64,000 nucleotides of DNA from an uncultured bacterium (GCA_964459325.1 CAYWKU010000001.1:158040-222039), one strand, 5' to 3'; positions 495 through 56,394 are shown, counted from the first letter of the stretch. Translations and numbers: made by a program. The notes: generated by a model from the letters alone, not told the origin.

Positions 495-634
495 TCGATT
501 TATAGCTTCGATGTTTAATCATGATAATGGATAACACAAGTGTCCTTATAGTCTTAATCATGCTTATTTTCCCGGTATTTATCCCGTGATAGCACCGTGC
601 AGCCTCGAGAGGCTCATGTTATCATGAACAAAAA

Positions 635-1648
635 ATGGGCAGTCTACTCAAAATAGGGGACCTGGAGCCGGCTAATAACCTTGTTTCGGCCCCCATGGCC
701 GGGATATCCGACGCCCCGTATCGTTATCTCGCCTCGAAGTGTGGAGCCGGGTTGACTTTCACCGAAATGGCCTCCTCCAGGGGTATGATTCAGGGGGACC
801 CTAAAACCCGGCGCCTGGCGAGTTCGTACCCGGAAGCGAAGCCCTACGCTGTTCAGATTTTCGGAGAAGACCCCGGTATCGTGTCGAGGGCCGCAGGGGT
901 GGCCGCAGCTTTGGGAGCGGACGCAGTGGATTTGAACGCCGCGTGCCCGGTGAAGAAGATAGTCAAAAGCGGAGCGGGCGCGGCGCTTTTGAGGGACCTG
1001 CCGCTTCTGGGACGAATACTTCGAGGGATGAGAAAAGTACTGGATGTGCCCGTGACGGTCAAAATCCGCTCCGGTTGGGACAAGAGCAATCTTTTGGACA
1101 CGCAAGTCGCCCGGTTGGCTCGGGATGAAGGGGCGGATGCGATTTCCCTGCATCCCCGCGCCGCATCTCAGGGGTTTTCAGGAAGCGCGGACTGGGTGCG
1201 TATTGCCGGAGTGGTGCAGGCCGTTCCGGATATACCTGTGATTGCCAGCGGCGATATAACCGGCCCCGCCTCGGCTCTCGATGTTATCAAGAGGACGGGC
1301 GCCGCCGGAGTGATGATAGGCCGGGCGGCGATGGGAAATCCCTTTATTTTCCGGGAAACAGCGGCGGCGCTGGAAGGAAAATCGCTTCCCCCTGCACCTG
1401 ATTATGCCGAAAGATGCCGTGTGGCGCTGGAACATTTCGACCTGATGCTCGCCTGGTATGACCGTCGGAACGCCGTGGCCTTGTGGAGGAAGCACCTTTG
1501 CTGGTACGTTAAGGGTGTAGCCGATGCGGCCAGGTTGAGGGAGGAAGTTTTCAGGGTGTGGGACGAGAGCAAGCTGCGCCTGATGACCCTTGATTTTTTC
1601 AATATGAAGGAGGAAGACATCGCTGAAAAAAGGAGTGTGACGGTTTGA
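635..1648 (+). CDS. dusB: tRNA-dihydrouridine synthase (Dus family, DusB-like)
   Basis: N-terminal PMAGISDAPYR motif and TIM-barrel Dus signature (CPVKKIV, KIRSGWD); 337 aa; ATGA overlap with the next gene. Confidence 0.85.
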   Translation: MGSLLKIGDLEPANNLVSAPMAGISDAPYRYLASKCGAGLTFTEMASSRGMIQGDPKTRRLASSYPEAKPYAVQIFGEDPGIVSRAAGVAAALGADAVDLNAACPVKKIVKSGAGAALLRDLPLLGRILRGMRKVLDVPVTVKIRSGWDKSNLLDTQVARLARDEGADAISLHPRAASQGFSGSADWVRIAGVVQAVPDIPVIASGDITGPASALDVIKRTGAAGVMIGRAAMGNPFIFRETAAALEGKSLPPAPDYAERCRVALEHFDLMLAWYDRRNAVALWRKHLCWYVKGVADAARLREEVFRVWDESKLRLMTLDFFNMKEEDIAEKRSVTV

Positions 1649-3030
1649 ACAACGATTCCAAACCCGGGATACTTATAGCCGTGGCCGACAGCGGGATTCG
1701 CGATTCACTGGTGGATTCTTTAGGCGGCGTTTATGATGTGCGTACCGTGGACAACGCGGCTCACATTCTCGACCTGCTGGAGGAAGGCGCCTACGAGATA
1801 GCTTTCCTGGGGTGGGGAATGCCCGGACTCTCCCTCCCGGAGCTTATGGAGATATTGAGCGATAAGCGGCTTCGGGTGAAAGTGGTGATGGTGGCGGGCG
1901 AGGCCGAAAAGCATCTCAGGGCCGATGCAATAGACGCCGGCGCCGAAGCGGTGTTGGTATCGCCCTTCGACCCGCGCGAGGCCGTTGCTGTCGCTCAGAA
2001 GCTCACGCGTCGCGGCGAAGAGCTTGCTTTCGTTAAAAATTACATCGAAAGGGAAAAAGCGCGCCTTCTCGAGTATCTCGGGGTTATTGACCAGCCCGTA
2101 AAAGTGGCCGTTGACAGGGCCATGTCTCTGGTGGAAAAAGAGGCTCCCGTGTTGTTCAGGGGGGAGCCCGGCACGGGTAAAGGAATTCTGGCAAAAGCCA
2201 TGACAATGGCCGGGCCGAACCCGCTGGGGCCGTTTGAAGTATTTTCCGCAAGGGGTAAGGAGGAACGGGAGATTGAAAATGCCCTTTTCGGGGGCGGAAG
2301 CGACGCCGGTCATATAGCTAGGGCCAAGGGTGGTGCGATTCTGTTGCACGGTGTAGGGGAGTTGTCCCGGCGACTCCAGGACAGAGTTTACAGGTCAATG
2401 GACTTTTTATGGGGAGAGTTGAGGTTTCTTTTTGCCACCCGTCTTGACCTGCACGGCGCGGTTTTGAGGGACGAGTTTCACGAGGAGTTGTGGAAGGCGG
2501 TGGAAAATAACGTAGTCTCCCTGCCGCCCCTTCGGGAAAGGCCCGGAGCGGTGGAGGAGCTTGCGGTGCGCATTGTAGAGAGGTATTCCGAAAGGATGGG
2601 CTCCGCCGTAACGGAAATACACCCCTCCGCCATGCGGCTATTGGAAGATTACCCGTGGCCGGGAAACCTGGAGGAGTTGGAAAAGGTTTTGGCCCTGGCG
2701 GTAAGCCGTGCTACCGACTCGGTACTTCTTCCCGATGACCTCCCGTTTGTTTCCGCCTCCCGCTCGGCGGGGGAGTTGAGGGACGTTTCGCTGGAGGAGG
2801 CGGTGGCGGCCAAACTGGCGCCACTGGTGGACACGCTGGACGACCTGCCCGAAGGGGAACTTTACCGGCTTATCCAGTCCAAGATGGAGCGCCCCCTTTT
2901 CCAGCTTGTGCTCAAAAAGCTCGGAGGCAACCAGGTAAAGGCCGCCAAGGCTATGGGCATTCACCGGAACACCTTGCGCAAAAAGCTCAGAGAATTGGGC
3001 ATAACTCCGAAGTCCCCGGTTCTCAAGTAA
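1645..3030 (+). CDS. NtrC-family (sigma-54 activator-like) DNA-binding protein with pseudo-receiver and degenerate AAA+ domain plus Fis-type HTH
   Basis: Walker A GEPGTGKG is present. GAFTGA is replaced by SDAGHIA. Walker B DE is replaced by HG (ILLHGVGEL). The receiver phospho-Asp position is Gly (FLGWGMPG). The C-terminal GNQVKAAKAMGIHRNTLRKKLRELGI matches a Fis/NtrC HTH. LPPLRER and WPGN motifs are retained. Confidence 0.75.
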   Translation: MNNDSKPGILIAVADSGIRDSLVDSLGGVYDVRTVDNAAHILDLLEEGAYEIAFLGWGMPGLSLPELMEILSDKRLRVKVVMVAGEAEKHLRADAIDAGAEAVLVSPFDPREAVAVAQKLTRRGEELAFVKNYIEREKARLLEYLGVIDQPVKVAVDRAMSLVEKEAPVLFRGEPGTGKGILAKAMTMAGPNPLGPFEVFSARGKEEREIENALFGGGSDAGHIARAKGGAILLHGVGELSRRLQDRVYRSMDFLWGELRFLFATRLDLHGAVLRDEFHEELWKAVENNVVSLPPLRERPGAVEELAVRIVERYSERMGSAVTEIHPSAMRLLEDYPWPGNLEELEKVLALAVSRATDSVLLPDDLPFVSASRSAGELRDVSLEEAVAAKLAPLVDTLDDLPEGELYRLIQSKMERPLFQLVLKKLGGNQVKAAKAMGIHRNTLRKKLRELGITPKSPVLK

Positions 3031-3082: not shown

Positions 3083-4399
3083 ATGACCGGTTATAAGAAA
3101 TATAAGAGCGCCGAATCCGGTGATTCCTCCCACAGCGGAGGGATTGTGTACGGGGGGTTCGATACAGGGACAGGCCGGTACGACCTTGGAGTGCCCGGGT
3201 TGGTGGCCGAGTGCATAGAGGAGATGTACCACTCCACCGGGGTTGAAGTGGCGCAGCGGGACAGATTGCTCCCGGCGGGGATAATAGCCGGAATAATCCT
3301 GGGCTTCGGTTTCGGTTTTCATCCCGCCGGCATAATTTACGGGCCTATCGGAGCTGCGTTGGGAGTGATATTCGGTGCTGCAGGCGGTTTTGTGGTTGGA
3401 TTGGCGCTTACTACGCTCGGAGAGCCGTGGTTGAAGCCACGGGCGCAGATGCTGCGGCAGGTGAAAAAGGGTAACTTCCGGAGCGCTTTAATGTCCCTCG
3501 GGCGCGCCGGGTTCTGGATATTTCGCGACCGCAATCCTTTCGAAAGGCTGACCCGCCTGCTGGTTTCCCCCCTCGGGTTGGGAAGTCCTGATTTGCCGCC
3601 GGACATAGCCGCCGCAAACCTGGTGGCGGTTGAGGGAGTGTTGGCGGAAAGCGTGGGCGACGTCGAAGAGGCCGTGAATTCATACCTGGCGGCTCTACAT
3701 TTATGGCCTCGACACACCTTTGTACTGGCCAGCGTAATGGAGTTGCTCATAAGGGAGGAAATTTACGACAGGTTGCAGGAGGTAGTCGAGGCCGCACACC
3801 GCTACCTGGACAGGGCAAGAGACCCCAGGTTGGTCAGGGCGGTGAACGACCACCTGGATTCTCTCAAGGACTCCTTTCAAAAGAGGGAAAAGCGCTCCGA
3901 GTTTAAAATGCATGAGCCGGAAATGGCTTATTTAAAGGAAAGGGTGGAAAGGGAGCAACCCTCATGCAACTTGGTTGAAAACCCCGGCAGCCAGATAACC
4001 AACGGCCTTTTGATAGTTGGAAGCTCCGGCGAGGAAAAAACCCTCAAGCTGGCGGCCATGCCGTTTCACCTGCTTCTTTTCCTGGCTGAGGCGATGAAGG
4101 AAAGCGCTCACCGGTATGGGGAAGACTCCTCCCAGGCGGGGTGGGTGAGCATACAGGAGTTGCTGGAAAAACTGCCATGGACCACGCCTAACGTAACCAA
4201 CTCTAACGTTCACAAACTGGTGTACAAAGTGAGAAATCAGATCGAGGACGCGGGTTTGGACAGGAATCTGGTGGAGGAGAACCTCAACGGCTGCTATCGT
4301 TTGAGTACGCCGTCTGAAAAAATCGAAATCCGCAGGTTTGACTCCGGGGTCGATGGCGCCAAACCGGAAGCGGTGACCGAATATGGGTTGAGGAAATGA
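3083..4399 (+). CDS. membrane-anchored protein with glycine-zipper TM segment and C-terminal OmpR/PhoB-type winged-helix DNA-binding domain
   Basis: Gly-rich hydrophobic region AGIIAGIILGFGFGF...GAAGGFVVGLAL. The C-terminus VHKLVYKVRNQIEDAGLD...NGCYRLS resembles the trans_reg_C wing. A 4-bp overlap with the downstream Memo gene. Confidence 0.5.
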   Translation: MTGYKKYKSAESGDSSHSGGIVYGGFDTGTGRYDLGVPGLVAECIEEMYHSTGVEVAQRDRLLPAGIIAGIILGFGFGFHPAGIIYGPIGAALGVIFGAAGGFVVGLALTTLGEPWLKPRAQMLRQVKKGNFRSALMSLGRAGFWIFRDRNPFERLTRLLVSPLGLGSPDLPPDIAAANLVAVEGVLAESVGDVEEAVNSYLAALHLWPRHTFVLASVMELLIREEIYDRLQEVVEAAHRYLDRARDPRLVRAVNDHLDSLKDSFQKREKRSEFKMHEPEMAYLKERVEREQPSCNLVENPGSQITNGLLIVGSSGEEKTLKLAAMPFHLLLFLAEAMKESAHRYGEDSSQAGWVSIQELLEKLPWTTPNVTNSNVHKLVYKVRNQIEDAGLDRNLVEENLNGCYRLSTPSEKIEIRRFDSGVDGAKPEAVTEYGLRK

Positions 4400-5619
4400 G
4401 CGAGGAAGAAAACCCCCGGCTCAGGCCGATTCTGTTTATGAAAACCAAGATGGAGGGCAAGGACTATATCCTCGCTCAGGACCGGACGCGCCAGGCTCAG
4501 CCGGTGTTGTTGCCCTCGGCACTGGAGCCGATTTTACGGCTACTGGACGGAAATCATTCACTCCGGGATATCCAGATGGAGCTTACCCGCGCACAGGGAG
4601 GGCAACTGGTTTCTTTCGACGAAGTAAAAAATATCGTGGAGCAGCTGGACAGCCACATGCTCCTGGACAGCGAGCGTTTCAGGGAGACTCAGGAGCTGGA
4701 GCGAAGGTTCTGGGAAGGGTGCAGGTTGAGGAAACCCTTTCATTCGGGACAGGCGTATCCGGATGACCCGGATGAATTGATGAAGATGCTCGACGGTTTT
4801 TACTCCGGTCTCGACTCCGACCCTGTTATCCGGGAGGGTGAGTTTGTAAGGGGCCTGCTGGCTCCACATATTGACATAAGGAGTGGCGGACCGACGTTCG
4901 CGCGAGCTTACCGGGAGCTTTCGGGCGAGCCGCGCGCCGGGCTTTACGTGATACTGGGAACGGCCCACGATTATACTCCCGGGCCGGTGAGCATAAGCCC
5001 CAAGGATTACCTTACCCCTCTTGGCGTGGCAAGGACGGACAATGATTTCATAGACAGGCTGGCTTGTAAGTATAATCCGGACTGGCTTATGGACGATACT
5101 TCCCATAAGACCGAGCACAGCATAGAATTTCAATTGATTTTCCTCCAGCACCTGTTGGGTTCAGGAGACATGCCGCCGGTTGTGCCGGTGCTGGCGGGAG
5201 GATTTTCCGAGTATGTAGAAGGCGGCTCGAGCCCGGCCGATGACGAGAGAGTCGCTCGCTTCATAGAAGCATTCAAGGAAACTGCCGAAGAAGACGGGCG
5301 GAAGATTACTTACATAGTGGGAGGCGACCTGGCTCACATAGGTCCCCGTTACGGCGATTCACACAAGGTGTTGCCCGATGACATCAAAACGTGTTCGGAA
5401 AAAGACATGCAAATGCTCGAAAAAGCGTGCGAAGGGGCCGAGGAGTTTTTCGAGTGCGTCGCCGGGGAAGGTGACCGACGCAATATATGCGGAATGCCGC
5501 CGCTTTATCTTATGCTAAAGCTGATTGACGGGGCAAAAGGCGAAATCATCAGCAATTCCCACTGGTTCGACGAATCCACCGGGAGCGCCGTTACTTTCGC
5601 CGCCATGGTATATAAATAA
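4396..5619 (+). CDS. MEMO1-family protein (AmmeMemoRadiSam system protein B-like) with an N-terminal extension of about 130 aa
   Basis: Motifs GLLAPHIDIRSGG, VILGTAHD and GGDLAHIGPRYGD are typical of Memo/LigB-type dioxygenase-fold proteins; 407 aa versus about 270 for typical Memo. Confidence 0.7.
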   Translation: MSEEENPRLRPILFMKTKMEGKDYILAQDRTRQAQPVLLPSALEPILRLLDGNHSLRDIQMELTRAQGGQLVSFDEVKNIVEQLDSHMLLDSERFRETQELERRFWEGCRLRKPFHSGQAYPDDPDELMKMLDGFYSGLDSDPVIREGEFVRGLLAPHIDIRSGGPTFARAYRELSGEPRAGLYVILGTAHDYTPGPVSISPKDYLTPLGVARTDNDFIDRLACKYNPDWLMDDTSHKTEHSIEFQLIFLQHLLGSGDMPPVVPVLAGGFSEYVEGGSSPADDERVARFIEAFKETAEEDGRKITYIVGGDLAHIGPRYGDSHKVLPDDIKTCSEKDMQMLEKACEGAEEFFECVAGEGDRRNICGMPPLYLMLKLIDGAKGEIISNSHWFDESTGSAVTFAAMVYK

Positions 5620-55029: not shown

Positions 55030-56394
55030 ATGGATAGAATCGCCAGATTCTTCGGCTTCCGCGAGGCGGGTACCACCTTCCGCACCGAAACAGTGGCCGG
55101 GGTTACCACCTTCATGACCATGGCCTACATCATCTTCGTTAATCCCAGCATCCTCGCCAATCCGCAAGGTTCCGGCATGTCCTTCGAGGGGGTGCTCATT
55201 GCCACCTGTGTCGCCAGCTTCCTCGCTACCCTGCTTATCGGCCTTTATGCCAACTATCCCATAGCCGCCGCGCCGGGCATGGGGCTTAACGCTTTCTTGA
55301 GTTTTGTTATATGCGGCTCTATGGGGGTGCCGTGGCAGGCGGCGCTGGGCATGGTCTTGATAAGTGGAGCTATTTTCGCGGTTCTCACCGTAGCGGGCGT
55401 GTGGGAGAAGGTCATAGACGCGGTGCCCCAGTCCCTGAAATATGCCACCGCATGTGGAATCGGCGCTTTCATCGCCTTCATCGGCTTCCAGCACGCGGGC
55501 CTGGTTGAAAAGGACCCGGTCACTTTCGTAACCTTCGGCGATTTGACCTCACTCCGTACCCTGCTTTCCATAGGCGGCCTGGTGCTTACAGTGGCCCTGA
55601 TAGCGAGGAATATTAAAGGAGCCATACTGATAGGGGTGATTGTCACCGGCATTGCCGGTTTCGCGATGGGTACAATCGAGCTGGTTCAGCCGGAAGCCGC
55701 GAAACAGGGCACATTCTTCCGGGTGGAAATTCTGGAGACTCTCAAAATCTGGAAGCATCCGAATTTCATAGCCCCCATACTTATACTTCTGTTTTTCGAC
55801 ATGTTCGATACGGTGGGAACTCTCATCGGTGTCGGCGAACAGGCGGGCCTGATGGTGGATGGCCGCCTCCCGCGCGGTCGCCAGGCGCTTTTGAGTGACG
55901 CCCTGGGCACTTGCGTGGGCGCCGCTCTGGGCACCAGCACGGTTACAAGTTACATCGAAAGCGCCAGCGGAGTGAGCGAAGGCGGGCGGACGGGGTTTTC
56001 CAACGTGATAACCGCCCTTTTGTTCCTGGCGGTGCTCGGACTGTTCCTTCTGGCGAGGGCTATGGGGATGGGAACTCTGGCGGAGGGGGGAGCGGAGCTG
56101 GCGCCGATAACCGCTCCGGCCCTGATAGTCGTGGGCACACTGATGATGGCCAACATCGCCAGAATACCGTGGGATGATTTCACCGAGGCGTTTCCGGCGT
56201 TCCTGGTCATTATCCTGATGCCGCTCACCTACAATATCTCCACCGGCCTGGCCGCCGGCTTTATCACCTATCCGTTGCTCAAACTCTTCCGGGGCGAGGG
56301 CAGTAAGGTACATGTTCTGATGTATGTGCTGGGCGGGCTTATATTGGCCGGATATATTTTCGTAAGCGTCTATCGAGCGATTGCAGGCTCATAG
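55030..56394 (+). CDS. NCS2 family purine permease (AzgA/PbuG-like)
   Basis: Typical N-terminus TEVVAGVTTFMTMAYIIFVNP. Confidence 0.8.
   Translation: MDRIARFFGFREAGTTFRTETVAGVTTFMTMAYIIFVNPSILANPQGSGMSFEGVLIATCVASFLATLLIGLYANYPIAAAPGMGLNAFLSFVICGSMGVPWQAALGMVLISGAIFAVLTVAGVWEKVIDAVPQSLKYATACGIGAFIAFIGFQHAGLVEKDPVTFVTFGDLTSLRTLLSIGGLVLTVALIARNIKGAILIGVIVTGIAGFAMGTIELVQPEAAKQGTFFRVEILETLKIWKHPNFIAPILILLFFDMFDTVGTLIGVGEQAGLMVDGRLPRGRQALLSDALGTCVGAALGTSTVTSYIESASGVSEGGRTGFSNVITALLFLAVLGLFLLARAMGMGTLAEGGAELAPITAPALIVVGTLMMANIARIPWDDFTEAFPAFLVIILMPLTYNISTGLAAGFITYPLLKLFRGEGSKVHVLMYVLGGLILAGYIFVSVYRAIAGS

Follow-up and report, generated by a model that had tools for sequence, protein, structure and literature searches.

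A 64,000-nucleotide stretch of DNA from an uncultured bacterium (GCA_964459325.1, CAYWKU010000001.1:158040-222039), referred to here as the window, contains a pair of overlapping genes formed by dusB (nifR3) and a gene for an NtrC-derived, catalytically dead regulator. The promoter, genes, and protein features mapped below between 592 and 5619 all lie on the plus strand. The dusB gene (635..1648) encodes the 337-residue tRNA dihydrouridine synthase B. It matches the Pfam Dus family at 256 bits and is a bona fide DusB, because its TIGR00737 score of 325.9 bits is above the cutoff of 293.3. The regulator gene (1645..3030) starts with TTG and encodes 461 amino acids (aa). The stop codon of dusB and this TTG overlap by 4 bp (GTTTGA), and the two open reading frames are those described in the first-pass annotation, which was made from the sequence alone. 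An AGGAG is present at 1631-1635, with a spacing of 9 nt to the TTG. The stop/start overlap and the AGGAG suggest that translation of the regulator is probably coupled to that of dusB.

The regulator has the domain order of NtrC. It matched Response_reg (PF00072) at 38.5 bits (cutoff, 30.2), Sigma54_activat (PF00158) at 43.7 bits (cutoff, 20.2), AAA_lid_14 at 53.7 bits, and HTH_8 at 36.3 bits. The AAA+ domain is therefore still of the Sigma54_activat type, although the match is weak compared with the 252.7 bits of an intact control NtrC from Desulfuromonas versatilis (L093), whose Response_reg score was 104.5 bits. The regulator did not reach the NtrC equivalog TIGR01818 (150.4 bits versus a cutoff of 558.6). 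Motif positions in the regulator were assigned from HMMER alignments with the solved structures of ZraR, LuxO, and NtrC1, from MAFFT alignments with intact relatives, and on an AlphaFold model. The three approaches agree on which residues occupy the motif positions.

The first 125 residues (1645..2019) form a pseudo-receiver domain. The CheY-like fold is retained: PF00072 is above its cutoff, and AlphaFold predicts a (beta-alpha)5 pattern with a predicted local distance difference test (pLDDT) score of >90. All five receiver signature residues are replaced. The Asp-Asp pair has become V13 and A14, the phospho-acceptor Asp is G55, the Thr is A85, and the Lys is S106. G55 lies in the sequence FLGWGMPG (nt 1801-1824). 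Both receiver losses noted at first pass, those of the phospho-acceptor Asp and the Lys, recur in the HMMER and MAFFT alignments. Given these replacements, the receiver is predicted to be incapable of phosphorylation. A continuous helix of 35 residues (aa 110 to 144; 1972..2076), also modeled with pLDDT >90, connects the receiver to the AAA+ domain. Its likeness to the linkers of NtrC1 and NtrX suggests a fixed dimer.

In the AAA+ domain, the alignments place a retained Walker A motif, the P-loop GEPGTGKG, at aa 173 to 180 (2161..2184) and a retained sensor II, PPLRER, at 2524..2541. The P-loop residues G173, G176, G178, and K179 are invariant in the clade of orthologs described below and in intact relatives. 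Between these two elements, loop L1 is reduced to the remnant FGGGSDAGH (2287..2313) by a nine-residue deletion that, according to both HMMER and MAFFT, takes out GAFTGA. The Walker B motif LFLDEIGD has degenerated to ILLHGVGE (2338..2361), with H235 and G236 in place of Asp-Glu. Within the clade, G236 is invariant and H235 nearly so. Loop L2, which precedes sensor I, is shortened by an 11-residue deletion, and sensor I itself reads ATR for ATN (2392..2442). The arginine-finger motif FRxDLxxR has become FHEELWKA (2476..2505, FHEELWKAVE for FREDLxYRLN), and both fingers are lost. The HMMER and MAFFT alignments thus agree with the first reading of this domain, in which Walker A was kept, HG replaced the DE of Walker B, and GAFTGA was missing. 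The losses exceed those listed then.

The loss of Walker B, of the two arginine fingers, and of sensor I would exclude ATP hydrolysis, and the deletion of loops L1 (with GAFTGA) and L2 would exclude contact with sigma-54 as well. The regulator is thus predicted to be able neither to hydrolyze ATP nor to engage sigma-54, as had been proposed from the smaller set of losses. The retained P-loop and sensor II may permit nucleotide binding without turnover. In the 64-kb window, there were 4 matches to the -24/-12 promoter pattern TGGCAC-N5-TTGC versus 4.3 expected, which is no excess.

An alternative is that the protein still functions as a sigma-54 activator or response regulator and that its motifs have been misaligned, or that the gene is a decaying pseudogene. 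The Pfam domain matches, which exceed their gathering thresholds, can be cited in favor of such an explanation. However, HMMER, MAFFT, and the structure model all put HG on the Walker B position and a gap on GAFTGA, and regular-expression searches found no GAFTGA-like or DE motif anywhere in the AAA+ domain. A shifted alignment, including the by-eye alignment of the first pass, is therefore ruled out by the HMMER alignments to structures, two MAFFT alignments, the regular expressions, and the AlphaFold model.

Decay is contradicted by the orthologs. A search of 5.8 billion proteins returned an identical protein, eight orthologs at 56 to 89% identity, and a distant pair at 37 to 39%; below this pair, the matches were ordinary NtrCs at 34% identity or less. 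When 1.84 billion cluster representatives were searched exhaustively with a profile, the only entries above the NtrC background were two clusters of full-length proteins, a single relative of 341 aa, and two fragments. The clade is therefore small, and its members come from uncultured organisms. It was monophyletic in 200 of 200 bootstraps in neighbor-joining (NJ) trees. All members, across 37 to 89% identity, share the losses and deletions, and the reading frame is intact in all orthologs. The replacement residues are themselves conserved, both in FLGWGMPG and at H235-G236. We compared the window with the 81%-identical locus L002 and calculated ratios of nonsynonymous to synonymous substitution rates (dN/dS) of 0.125 for the receiver, 0.174 for the AAA+ core, 0.18 for the lid, and 0.10 for the helix-turn-helix (HTH). 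The value for the regulator overall was 0.14, close to the 0.13 of dusB, and every domain of the regulator is under purifying selection. Because the losses are clade-wide and all domains are under purifying selection, this is not a decaying gene. Misalignment and decay can be set aside as extremely improbable.

The AlphaFold model has a mean pLDDT of 91.6 and a predicted template modeling score of 0.73. It comprises the receiver, the linking helix, the AAA+ domain with its core and lid, and a C-terminal domain of four helices. The best full-length Foldseek matches were NtrC1, Brucella NtrX, LuxO, and VpsR. The modeled AAA+ core superimposed on PspF at 2.1 to 2.6 Å, and the root mean square deviation was 2.1 to 4 Å when the AAA+ domains of PspF and NtrC1 were considered together.

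The C-terminal domain (aa 376 to 461; 2770..3027) is a Fis-type four-helix DNA-binding domain, with predicted helices at 383 to 396, 405 to 425, 430 to 437, and 441 to 450. Its HTH, GNQVKAAKAMGIHRNTLRKKL (2926-2988), is intact, and the HTH_8 match and the alignment to Fis uphold the earlier statement to that effect. The last 89 residues of the regulator align without gaps to residues 9 to 97 of Escherichia coli Fis (E value of 8e-11, 35% identity). The DNA-contact residues of Fis, which we take to be Asn-Gln in helix C and Arg, Thr, Arg, and Lys in helix D, are conserved in the regulator in this alignment.

The first-pass annotation had proposed that the protein may act like Fis, as an architectural factor. 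In this scenario, it would be an abundant nucleoid-associated protein, expressed with dusB as fis is, that binds and bends DNA with low specificity by means of its Fis-type domain. The role of the dead domains would be that of passengers or of a scaffold for oligomerization. The complete four-helix domain with its conserved contact residues fits such a role, as does an operon position equal to that of fis (PMC7482072); the dusB promoter also resembles a housekeeping extended -10 promoter. However, the regulator scored 58.9 bits against the Fis equivalog NF001659, whose cutoff is 99, and it has 461 residues compared with roughly 98 in stand-alone Fis. An equivalent of the N-terminal beta-hairpin arm with which Fis activates invertases is not evident; the region aligned with it (aa 365 to 382) has low similarity and is modeled with low confidence (pLDDT, 56 to 80). 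The C terminus also does not resemble Fis more closely than the C termini of ordinary NtrCs do. Its similarity to E. coli Fis was 41 bits, rank 130 among 326 related proteins, and an intact Desulfuromonas NtrC scored 62 bits. In NJ trees of the C-terminal domain, Fis joined the window clade in 0 of 200 bootstraps. An especially Fis-like C terminus is ruled out by this rank and these bootstraps. Finally, the dead receiver and AAA+ domains are constrained like the HTH (dN/dS of 0.125 and 0.17 versus 0.10). This constraint implies that the regulator does more than bind DNA through its C terminus and speaks for a specific function past DNA bending. We consider a purely architectural protein unlikely.

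The same scores and trees bear on the origin of the regulator. It had been suggested that the protein might be an evolutionary intermediate to Fis or, alternatively, a case of independent degeneration. The rank of its C terminus and the lack of any grouping with Fis speak against the former. Degeneration specific to this lineage, within the dusB-ntrBC line of descent, is the better reading, and the regulator does not appear to be a direct forerunner of Fis.

The dusB gene is the nifR3 gene of older nomenclature, which opens the classical nifR3-ntrB-ntrC operon of Alphaproteobacteria; dusB-fis is the arrangement of Gamma- and Betaproteobacteria. The first-pass annotation had singled out an NtrC-like rather than a Fis partner of dusB. 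This pairing is real; it is not surprising, given the known operon. In Sinorhizobium meliloti, dusB-ntrBC is transcribed as one mRNA and is autorepressed by NtrC at PdusB (PMC10746234), and the dusB-fis promoter is autorepressed by Fis (PMC7482072). The parallel between dusB-fis and nifR3-ntrBC, with Fis derived from NtrC, goes back to Morett and Bork (1998), as cited in PMC2831072 and PMC7482072.

At all clade loci with sequence (L001-L010, L090, L091, and L097), dusB lies directly upstream of the regulator gene in the same orientation, and no kinase gene intervenes, so the linkage is present in every relative examined. The two genes overlap by 4 to 14 bp in L001-L006 and L010 where gene calls exist, the position in L010 being from tblastn. 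They are separated by gaps of 22 to 48 bp in L007-L009, L090, and L091. In L097 the overlap is again 4 bp, and the upstream fragment is the C terminus of DusB (E value of 4e-14). The closest intact sequence relatives of the regulator are members of NtrB-NtrC pairs; a kinase gene is present in L093, L094, and L095. The complete dusB-kinase-NtrC arrangement also occurs outside the Alphaproteobacteria. In Desulfuromonas versatilis, dusB is followed by a PAS-HisKA-HATPase kinase and then by an NtrC with all motifs intact. The arrangement is likewise intact in 13 Deferrimicrobium-type or "delta-proteobacterial" genomes, where some 1.1 kb separates dusB from a downstream NtrC that has kept its motifs. 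The closest named relatives of the window DusB are from Desulfuromonadales and Syntrophus, at about 45% identity. The simplest history would be a dusB-ntrB-ntrC operon that lost ntrB, after which ntrC lost its signaling and motor chemistry. The linkage to dusB is not what is new at this locus; the novelty is a complete catalytic degeneration combined with the loss of ntrB. In two of the more distant loci (L090:3253-5000 and L091:3251-5000), hfq-hflX is transcribed divergently from dusB and the regulator gene, and a single intergenic region serves both pairs.

A candidate dusB promoter and operator lies at 592..625. It contains an extended -10 element, TGTTATCAT, at 617-625 (TG at 617-618 and TATCAT at 620-625), which ends about 10 nt before the dusB ATG. 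The -35 position is occupied by a GC-rich block with the palindrome GCACCGTGC at 592-600. This block is position-conserved in the window, L002, L004, and L090, and the rest of the intergenic region is unalignable. By the parallels of NtrC at PdusB and Fis at Pfis, we propose the GC-rich block as a candidate autoregulatory operator. No Shine-Dalgarno sequence precedes dusB at window positions 617-637 (GAACAAAAAATG), and L002 and L004 have the same layout. It may be that dusB is translated from an mRNA with no leader or almost none. We also noticed an AT-rich near-palindrome (TTAATCATG..) in three copies, at 515-528, 554-567, and 619-632 (TTAATCATGATAAT, TTAATCATGCTTAT, and TTATCATGAACAAA, respectively), the third of which overlaps the -10 element. 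These repeats are not conserved in L002, and we set them aside as a promoter feature.

Among the known proteins most like the regulator are enhancer-binding proteins (EBPs) that have departed from the sigma-54 pathway. Atypical EBPs without GAFTGA include TyrR, HupR, HsfA, PhhR, NtrX, and VpsR; non-consensus Walker B motifs and sigma-70 promoters are found among them, and in VpsR the DE of Walker B is ND (PMC6158489). The NtrCs of Rhodobacter and Caulobacter are likewise sigma-54 independent and act at sigma-70 promoters, and Caulobacter NtrC requires both Walker motifs (bioRxiv 10.1101/2023.06.06.543975). Atypical EBPs act as repressors or activators (PMC6158489; bioRxiv 10.1101/2023.06.06.543975). 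The regulator resembles Brucella NtrX, VpsR, the Rhodobacter and Caulobacter NtrCs, HupR, and TyrR in lacking GAFTGA, and in our alignment, loops L1 and L2 are shortened in a similar manner in NtrX proteins (P0064 and L089). Descent from NtrX was rejected, because P0064 and L089 lie elsewhere in the tree and the window clade forms a monophyletic group with a second dead family, described below, in 196 of 200 bootstraps. With the NtrC of dusB(nifR3)-ntrB-ntrC, the regulator shares the three-domain architecture, the Fis-type C terminus, and the position 3' of dusB. It differs in that ntrB is missing from the window locus and the receiver signature, Walker B, fingers, sensor I, GAFTGA, and L2 are lost. 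With Fis, which is also 3' of dusB, it shares the HTH and the DNA-contact residues, but Fis has 98 residues, and the regulator has 461, with two additional conserved domains. Judged by its motifs, the regulator has the architecture of an atypical EBP (no GAFTGA and a non-consensus Walker B), with losses that exceed those of any of them.

By analogy with these proteins, we think it probable that this orphan NtrC descendant is a sigma-54-independent, sequence-specific DNA-binding regulator, in all likelihood dimeric, that acts at sigma-70-type promoters. We suggest that an ancestral dusB(nifR3)-ntrB-ntrC operon lost its kinase gene and that translation of the regulator came to be coupled to that of dusB. 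The regulator keeps the fold of the three NtrC domains and, as predicted from its residues, none of their chemistry. Selection preserves the P-loop and sensor II, the helix between the receiver and the AAA+ domain, and the Fis-type four-helix domain. The protein would probably feed back on the dusB promoter, like rhizobial NtrC and enterobacterial Fis.

Several observations weigh against this proposal. The known atypical EBPs retain some catalytic or phospho-acceptor residues; the phospho-acceptor Asp is still present in them, as are Walker B and the fingers in most, whereas the regulator has none of these and no linked kinase. The analogy is therefore imperfect. The P-loop is absent in one member of the clade (P0245), so nucleotide binding may be dispensable. 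The candidate operator is based on four orthologous promoters, and its palindrome GCACCGTGC occurs twice in the 64 kb, which is not significant (11 of 100 shuffles).

Selection on an AAA+ fold and lid without catalysis would also fit a modulator of other EBPs. Here, the dead subunit would join or cap the rings of an active paralog or compete for its DNA sites, and it would thus be an anti-activator. Mixed or paired EBPs exist, RedR1/RedR2 being one described example (PMC10084136). However, the regulator lacks the arginine fingers and loops from which a large part of the ring interface and working surface is built. The remainder of the 64-kb window consists of ordinary housekeeping genes, among which we found no rpoN, kinase, or second EBP, so that there is no paralog nearby within the window. 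The invariant partner of the regulator is dusB, not another EBP. We regard the modulator role as quite improbable, somewhat more so than the architectural one, and favor a DNA-binding regulator of sigma-70-type promoters.

The window clade, which we call family A, is not the only reduced NtrC lineage attached to dusB. Among the matches of the 5.8-billion-protein search were about 58 proteins of 325 to 373 aa (P0026-P0099 and P0385), which we call family B. These are receiver-less, dead EBP-like proteins. Their Walker A motif is GEHGTGRE, with Arg for Lys, and their Walker B motif is LLVKDVSD, with KD. Like the regulator, they have lost GAFTGA, loop L2, and the arginine fingers and have kept sensor II and the Fis-type domain. 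In source annotations they appear under the names "sigma 54-interacting regulator [Kofleriaceae]" and "GlnG." The family Kofleriaceae is part of the Myxococcota; other members come from soil metagenomes. In a Kofleriaceae genome, the family B gene begins one base past the end of dusB (L096:3921-6026). A metagenome scan yielded 80 family B loci (L098-L177), and dusB was directly upstream on the same strand in all 56 with sufficient upstream sequence.

Family B was sister to the window clade in 196 of 200 NJ bootstraps. This grouping may alternatively reflect long-branch attraction between two relaxed lineages. Family B differs from the regulator not only in its missing receiver and altered Walker A but also in being far more abundant and more like Fis. 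It has the most Fis-like C terminus in the data set (62 to 70 bits with phmmer). In a BLASTP comparison with E. coli Fis, the family B protein P0095 had 54% identity over 71 residues (77 bits), compared with 35% (57 bits) for the window protein. Fis grouped with family B in 73 of 200 bootstraps, a frequency that is only suggestive of an affinity.

On the branch of the window clade itself, the 341-aa P0245 (L097:198-1223) is without a receiver, and its Walker A motif (GEGGLRKP) no longer contains the Lys. Stages of reduction therefore coexist in family A, P0245, and family B, all of them attached to dusB. In our literature search, we found no description of dusB-linked dead EBP-like proteins. 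Two dead NtrC-derived families that are invariably tied to dusB appear to be undescribed in the literature searched and to be the more interesting lead.

The two families might be surviving stages of a dusB-linked reduction of NtrC that ended in a bare Fis domain. Fis would then have arisen when a family-B-like protein, already dead and coupled to dusB, lost what remained of its AAA+ domain, and not directly from an alphaproteobacterial NtrC. We offer this as a speculative and rather doubtful scenario. If it were true, the order would run from an intact NtrB-NtrC pair, through a kinase-less protein with pseudo-receiver and dead AAA+ domain and then loss of receiver and P-loop, to a bare Fis domain. 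The unbroken coupling to dusB would in that case point to a never-explained functional tie between DusB and its DNA-binding partner.

Other eroded EBPs were seen in the same data. In an alphaproteobacterial metagenome-assembled genome (OZ241357.1, L081:4934-6969), dusB is directly followed by a receiver-less EBP in which GAFTGA is degenerate (GALADA) and Walker A reads GPAGAGKG, with Walker B and the arginine fingers intact. The degeneration beside dusB in this genome is thus only partial and of another kind. Three full-length NtrX-like proteins of 457 to 459 aa (P0041, P0046, and P0071) have lost Walker B (LHLAGVAD or LHLSEVTE) and kept LRRDLHDRL. From their motifs, we read these three as a separate, independent erosion of the ATPase site within the NtrC/NtrX group.

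Downstream of the regulator, two further genes lie on the same strand. The first (3083/3146-4399) encodes an orphan protein of about 417 to 438 aa without a Pfam or NCBIfam family. The second (4396-5619) overlaps it by 4 bp and encodes a Memo/AmmeMemoRadiSam-system protein B. This pair (3083..5619) is kept in orthologous loci down to 63% identity (L002-L006) and is missing in L007, L090, and L091. The two genes may belong to the same transcription unit as dusB and the regulator; given their absence from the distant clade loci, they are outside the conserved core. By eye, the C terminus of the orphan protein looks like a winged-helix DNA-binding domain. In L007-L009, a xanthine/uracil permease gene lies directly 3' of the dead regulator (L007:9362-10789). 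A homolog of this permease family is present in the window at 55030-56394, 52 kb away, which is probably a coincidence. No rRNA was found in the 64-kb window.

The regulator offers a natural case for noncatalytic roles of receiver and AAA+ domains, such as dimerization, nucleotide or ligand sensing, or contacts with RNA polymerase. There is also a practical consequence for genome annotation: such proteins are labeled automatically as "GlnG" or "sigma-54-dependent regulator," and predictions of sigma-54 regulons would be inflated as a result. The combination of dusB with an NtrC- or Fis-type partner now spans four architectures, namely, dusB-ntrBC, dusB-fis, dusB with a full-length dead NtrC-like protein, and dusB with a receiver-less dead EBP-like protein. 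Because the coupling to dusB persists across all four, it is likely to have a functional reason rather than to be a historical accident. The two dead families would be living analogs of the intermediate forms that the Morett-Bork scenario requires in the derivation of Fis.

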